Source: Escherichia coli
GTDB taxonomy: Bacteria; Pseudomonadota; Gammaproteobacteria; Enterobacterales; Enterobacteriaceae
Reading direction: 5' to 3' (one strand)
DNA: 64,000 nucleotides
NCBI RefSeq assembly: GCF_003334765.1
Contig: NZ_QOWT01000001.1
Shown here: in pieces, positions 61,558-61,581 of the stretch
Numbering within the stretch: the stretch's first letter is position 1
How the letters are laid out: each line of letters opens with the position of its first letter
The notes under the pieces: generated by a model
Seen by the model: only the letters and a program-made list of their open reading frames with translations
Told to the model about the DNA's origin: nothing
Database searches by the model: none
Program-made: the position numbers and the translations under genes

Positions 61558-61581
61558 TGAAATGTTATAATATCACACTTC
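61558..61581. promoter_or_regulatory. Zur operator in the divergent znuCB / znuA promoter region
   Basis: TGAAATGTTATAATATCACACTTC resembles the Zur box palindrome. Confidence 0.55.

Follow-up and report, generated by a model that had tools for sequence, protein, structure and literature searches.

The sequence TGAAATGTTATAATATCACACTTC, 24 bases at positions 61558-61581 of the window (the whole 64-kb stretch of DNA analyzed here), almost certainly marks the Zur operator of the E. coli znuA/znuCB bidirectional promoter. The initial annotation, which gave these letters correctly, had described a Zur-box palindrome between the divergent starts of znuC (minus strand) and znuA (plus strand), overlapping likely -10 elements and acting as a single operator for zinc-dependent repression of both promoters. 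That gene arrangement is confirmed by the RefSeq annotation of E. coli K-12 MG1655, and the single operator is upheld by identity to crystallized DNA, by matrix scoring and by the literature; the palindrome and the 24-bp extent stood in part, as described below. The evidence presented here consists of identity to the crystallized operator, matches to consensus and matrix, gene context, and conservation; no finding speaks against the identification. Biologically nothing is new, the operator being already known in full molecular detail: it is the reference example of Zur-DNA recognition, and has been footprinted, crystallized, mutated base by base and followed in single-molecule studies. The case has value as a control, in which a reading of sequence without tools found a real regulatory site and interpreted it correctly, while the comparative alignment shows at a glance what does not change across Enterobacterales, namely the core and an upstream TTGCA, and what is free to vary, namely the outer right arm.

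The site sits in the promoter region of zinc-homeostasis genes and overlaps core promoter elements (Table 1). The window is 100% identical to MG1655 in the znu region, the znu locus was found in 5426/5426 complete E. coli genomes, and the products of znuB, znuC, znuA and mepM all clear the curated NCBIfam cut-offs of the corresponding models by a wide margin. Relative to the start codons, the Zur box occupies -52 to -30 from the znuA ATG and -27 to -49 from the znuC ATG. The zur gene lies outside the window; its E. coli product is the protein of PDB 4MTD.

Table 1. Genes, operator registers and promoter elements of the znu region, in window coordinates.
Feature	Position	Strand	Description	Basis
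znuB (permease)	59995-60780	-		RefSeq; NCBIfam ZnuB, 532.8 bits vs cut-off 284
znuC (ATPase), first gene of znuCB operon	60777-61532	-	ATG at 61532	RefSeq; NCBIfam ZnuC, 535.6 bits vs cut-off 306
znuC-znuA spacer	61533-61610		78 bp between divergent start codons	RefSeq MG1655 gene annotation
TTGCAg block, probable -35 of znuA promoter	61546-61551	+		At least 95% conserved in 38 Enterobacterales spacers
31-bp duplex crystallized with (Zur2)2	61552-61582	none		Exact identity to oligonucleotides in Table S2 of Gilston et al., 2014
Structure-based Zur box core, 20-mer	61558-61577	none	Two overlapping Zur dimers; dyad between 61567 and 61568	
Classical 23-bp Zur box	61559-61581	none	11-1-11 imperfect palindrome, centre 61570	
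Putative extended -10, znuA promoter	61563-61571	+	TGtTATAAT; predicted start near 61578	Sequence scan
Putative extended -10, znuCB promoter	61567-61575	-	TGaTATTAT; predicted start near 61560	Sequence scan
znuA (periplasmic zinc-binding protein)	61611-62543	+	ATG at 61611	RefSeq; NCBIfam ZnuA, 523.3 bits vs cut-off 268
mepM (zinc metalloendopeptidase)	62559-63881	+		RefSeq

The most direct evidence is identity to DNA that has been crystallized with the repressor. Positions 61552-61584 match, base for base, the 33-nt oligonucleotide 31mer2bpOH-r in Table S2 of Gilston et al. (2014; PMC4219657), and the complementary 31 nt over 61552-61582 match its partner, 31mer2bpOH-f; the sequence in the window is thus the same object as the K-12 PznuABC of PDB 4MTD/4MTE, with no difference. 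That duplex was co-crystallized with two Zur dimers, in entries titled "Zinc uptake regulation protein," and according to its authors corresponds to the stretch of 31 nucleotides that footprinting showed to be protected (Gilston et al., 2014; PMC4219657). The dimers bind the znu operator cooperatively on opposite faces of the DNA, each monomer reading a purine-N3-pyrimidine element through Arg65 and Tyr45, with an apparent Kd by EMSA of 8.2e-18 M^2 (PMC4219657). Zur binding, zinc dependence, cooperativity and a 6.6-fold repression of znuC in vivo are accordingly established in the literature (PMC4219657), in which the znuA/znuCB bidirectional promoter is described as having a single Zur element (PMC11618457, PMC2706843).

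Comparison with published recognition patterns gave the same answer. The 23-mer agrees with the 23-bp gamma-proteobacterial Zur-box consensus, GAAATGTTATA-N-TATAACATTTC (GAAATGTTATANTATAACATTTC), at 20 of its 22 specified positions. Allowing up to 3 mismatches, it is the sole match to the Zur consensus in the window, against an analytical chance expectation of 1.6e-5 per window; 100 dinucleotide-preserving shuffles of the window contained no match. The 20-mer fits the structure-based pattern TGWNAYRWTATAWYRTNWCA with 0 mismatches, and the site conforms to the two-dimer pattern (RNNNYRNNRYNNYRNNNY / TGWNAYRWTATAWYRTNWCA) with a central TATA, the skeleton lying at 61559-76. The bare purine/pyrimidine skeleton RNNNYRNNRYNNYRNNNY is loose and fits several registers in each probe, and therefore was not used alone.

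A quantitative matrix was built from three of the four proven E. coli Zur operators whose probes are listed in Table S2 of Gilston et al. (2014; PMC4219657). It was 20 nt long and symmetrized, and was trained on the zinT, L31p (ykgM) and pliG operators with znu left out. Positions 61558-61577 scored 23.9 bits, ranking first of about 128,000 positions, the runner-up scoring 15.0; with a matrix of three training sites only, none of the 100 shuffled windows reached 23.9 bits. With zinT and L31p alone as training sites the znu site was still first, at 20.9 bits, a score reached in 1/100 shuffles. The znu 20-mer is identical to the zinT and ykgM operators at 16/20 and 15/20 positions, respectively, so that both checks named in the initial annotation, a position-weight-matrix scan and comparison with these two operators, came out in favor of Zur. 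The runner-up, at 58049-58068 upstream of ruvA, was dismissed because its score is no higher than chance allows: the best score per shuffled window averaged 12.2 bits with a maximum of 21.4. Two CTG-N10-CAG sequences resembling LexA (SOS) boxes also lie upstream of ruvA, at 58098-58113 and 58151-58166.

The description of the site as a palindrome holds with qualification. A direct count of arm pairs around 61570 shows that 9/11 are complementary in the 23-mer, an imperfect palindrome; the same threshold (at least 9/11) is reached at 15 centers in the window, compared with 8.1 expected in random sequence. Palindromy of the znu site taken alone is no more than chance; what is exceptional is its match to the Zur consensus. 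A repeat search on exact seeds reported only a 9-nt overlapping palindrome at the site, since exact-seed logic misses an imperfect 11-1-11 repeat. Similarly, the 24-mer was read exactly but does not coincide with the operator: it is off-center, its first T being part of the 20-nt structure-based register, the protected DNA extends over 31 bp and accommodates two dimers, and its terminal CTTC is variable (see below).

The overlap with likely -10 elements was borne out by a sequence scan, which placed two divergent extended -10 elements wholly within the Zur box, overlapping each other, the plus-strand TGtTATAAT being a perfect extended -10. Published work on the E. coli bidirectional promoter likewise has sigma-70 sites overlapping the Zur box (PMC7705223). 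The -35 hexamers are poor: a promoter scan demanding at least 4/6 matches in the -35 returned no canonical sigma-70 -35/-10 pair in 61400-61750, as would be expected where -35 hexamers are weak and both promoters are of the extended -10 type. We infer from sequence where exactly the -10 and -35 elements and the transcription starts of the E. coli znu promoters lie. TTGCA (61546-61550) keeps a fixed spacing to the box in 38/38 Enterobacterales spacers and lies just outside the 31 bp protected by Zur. Judging from its sequence, TTGCAG is probably the -35 of the znuA promoter, although read in this way it stands 14 nt from the perfect TATAAT, too short a spacer, and 16 nt from TAATAT (61568-73), likewise inside the box. 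It seems improbable that TTGCA is more than a -35, whether by marking a site for a second factor or by giving Zur another point of contact; in such a role it would resemble "site 2" of Y. pestis or the partner proposed for ZntR acting "through DNA," and the znu switch would gain a further level of control.

Together these elements account for the switch. With enough free zinc, a cooperating pair of zinc-loaded Zur dimers occupies opposite faces of about 31 bp (61552-61582) and reads the purine-N3-pyrimidine elements in the core (61558-77). Because both predicted extended -10 elements lie inside this core, bound Zur excludes RNA polymerase from both promoters, so that znuCB is repressed in one direction and znuA, probably together with mepM, in the other. 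Once zinc drops, Zur loses its regulatory zinc and leaves, and the high-affinity ZnuABC importer is made. Experimental findings of several kinds are reportedly in print for Zur: the purified zinc-bound protein is said to shift or footprint 61552-61582, in zinc-replete medium deletion of zur reportedly alters the levels of znuA and znuC transcripts, and mutation of the central bases A15/A16' (numbering of Gilston 2014) is reported to abolish zinc- and Zur-dependent regulation. The E. coli znu promoters are said to have been mapped by Patzer and Hantke in the JBC in 2000, and earlier work on the znuABC operator is reportedly that of Patzer and Hantke and of Outten et al., to which Gilston 2014 refers.

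Conservation was assessed at loci chosen with a degenerate DNA pattern for the ZnuA motif FHDAYGYF, one genome per species, a choice blind to the box. The 120 loci retrieved included 97 with near-full ZnuA and 75 with a divergent, adjacent znuC. In the Enterobacterales loci ZnuA is 55-96% identical to that of E. coli and the spacers measure 74-118 bp; every Enterobacterales spacer retrieved contains ATGTTATA[A/T]TAT[C/A/T]AC, the box center falls 37-86 nt before the znuA start (most often 42-43 nt), and the box outscores the rest of the locus on the Zur matrix in nearly all cases. Spacers from 37 other Enterobacterales genomes were aligned with the window (38 sequences). A Zur box occupies the orthologous position in 37/37 of the other spacers, and nowhere is the spacer more conserved than in the core of this box, ATGTTATAATAT: the majority base has a frequency of 0.98 over 61562-61573 and a mean of 0.86 over the 20-mer, compared with 0.61 in the spacer to the left of the box, 0.56 to the right, and 0.65-0.71 in the coding flanks. 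The outer right arm, CTTC (61578-61581), varies across genera. Within E. coli, the most divergent strain sampled has changes at 61578 and 61581, the common variant (61598 T>G) falls outside the Zur box, and the 20-mer is unaltered in three sampled variants. In Vibrionaceae, AATGTTATAATGTAACA is found at the same place. Conservation therefore supports function, while it cannot separate Zur binding from a promoter role, because the core doubles as both -10 elements.

This last point bears on a reading in which the znu site is only the AT-rich core of back-to-back promoters, its palindromy arising from the divergent layout, with no repressor site at all. TGtTATAAT and TGaTATTAT do occupy the center of the box, the conserved core coincides with these elements, and similar palindromes are common in the window (15 vs. 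about 8 expected). Conservation and consensus match nevertheless run past the -10 hexamers (from G 61564 leftwards, and at CAC 61574-76), the top score was assigned by a matrix from the unrelated zinT, ykgM and pliG promoters, and the exact DNA has been crystallized with Zur, with a Zur-dependent footprint and repression published. We consider it extremely improbable that the site is promoter core and nothing else. Promoter core and Zur operator are in any case compatible, since it is through its overlap with the -10 elements that the operator acts. Attribution to Fur, as an iron box, or to another regulator of that family carries virtually no weight: Zur is itself a Fur-family protein and both kinds of box are AT-rich inverted repeats, but Tyr45 contacts a central TATA that is reported to be Zur-specific and that the Fur consensus lacks (PMC4219657), and the 19-bp Fur consensus GATAATGATAATCATTATC finds no better match in the spacer than 13/19, at a place to the right of the box and outside it. 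There is next to no chance, too, that the box is coding sequence. An in-frame ATG at 61557 would extend ZnuA by 18 residues (61557-61610), but most genera lack this ATG, and in others the frame is broken by 1-nt indels lying between the box and the start annotated for znuA, on which grounds the longer protein was rejected; RefSeq places the start at 61611, and the alignment of the 310-aa protein to the NCBIfam ZnuA model begins at its residue 2.

That the operator is common to further regulators (ZntR acting "through DNA," SoxS, factors dependent on c-di-GMP), and so does more than a simple Zur switch, is possible but on balance doubtful. A partial recognition sequence for ZntR overlaps the Zur box and apo-ZntR speeds the unbinding of Zur, whereas ZntR showed no binding on its own (PMC11618457). 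Overexpression of SoxS raises znuACB mRNA according to the literature, and c-di-GMP is reported there to affect znu transcription in Erwinia. SoxS as a direct co-regulator was rejected on published grounds, gel shifts having detected no binding; it acts indirectly. ZntR, SoxS and c-di-GMP are in addition modifiers of the Zur mechanism rather than alternatives to it.

Among Zur operators, those of E. coli pliG, zinT and ykgM-ykgO (L31p/L36p) are 18/20, 16/20 and 15/20 identical to the znu 20-mer and share with it the pattern TGWNAYRWTATAWYRTNWCA, the central TATA and two-dimer binding. In znu, unlike these three, the right arm is broken by a C at 61574 (TATCACA vs. TATAACA). Compared with the operators of zinT and L31p, for which 560-980-fold repression has been measured, the znu site binds Zur approximately 150-300 times more weakly (Table 3 of Gilston et al., 2014; PMC4219657), and it is the only one of the four E. 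coli operators shown here that lies between divergent genes and serves two promoters. In the Enterobacterales alignment, the palindrome-breaking base at 61574 tracks taxonomy, being C in Escherichia, Enterobacter, Cedecea, Pantoea and Serratia, T in Yersinia and Rahnella, and A (the consensus base) in Photorhabdus, Proteus, Pectobacterium and Edwardsiella. Given the weak affinity reported for E. coli znu, the base at this position may tune operator strength.

A close published parallel is found in Y. pestis, where primer extension, footprinting, EMSA and lacZ fusions revealed the same divergent znuA/znuCB pair, with a 73-bp spacer and a Zur box over the -10 elements (PMC2706843). The core ATGTTATAATAT is identical in the Yersinia loci, which have TATTACG as the right arm. 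Two separate footprints (sites 1 and 2) were seen in Y. pestis, whereas a single element is described for E. coli (PMC2706843).

The unit under Zur control probably extends beyond the importer. The start of znuB and the stop of znuC overlap by 4 nt (ATGA, 60777-60780), an arrangement associated with translational coupling. On the other side, a gap of 15 bp (62544-62558) separates znuA from mepM; no terminator-like site was found in this gap, and a strong terminator-like hairpin with a T-run lies 3' of mepM, at 63897-63921. mepM is directly downstream of znuA in 44/97 loci, and is reported to be co-transcribed with znuA and induced by zinc starvation (PMC7705223, among other reports). The short, terminator-free gap, the hairpin after mepM and the literature together indicate that mepM is probably under the same Zur operator through co-transcription with znuA, and that the operator therefore probably controls four genes rather than three.

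Two other groups of loci in the sample differ in arrangement. In seven Pasteurellaceae loci (L007, L015, L037, L041, L066, L109, L111) znuA is present without a divergent znuC, and no good match to the Zur matrix was found within 250 nt upstream of znuA (1-9 bits); this family has either a different box or another mode of znuA regulation. Three Rhodobacterales loci (L008, L046, L102) have a znuC-znuA gap of ~520-590 bp, with a gene of 158-162 aa on the znuC strand and a GTTATnnTATAAC-type box 16-58 nt before znuA. The sole NCBIfam match of this gene is Zur, whose 116.6 bits fall short of the 167-bit cut-off; among PDB entries the gene product matches 4MTD best (E = 1.9e-27). From these matches and the accompanying box, the repressor gene therefore apparently lies inside the locus that it regulates.
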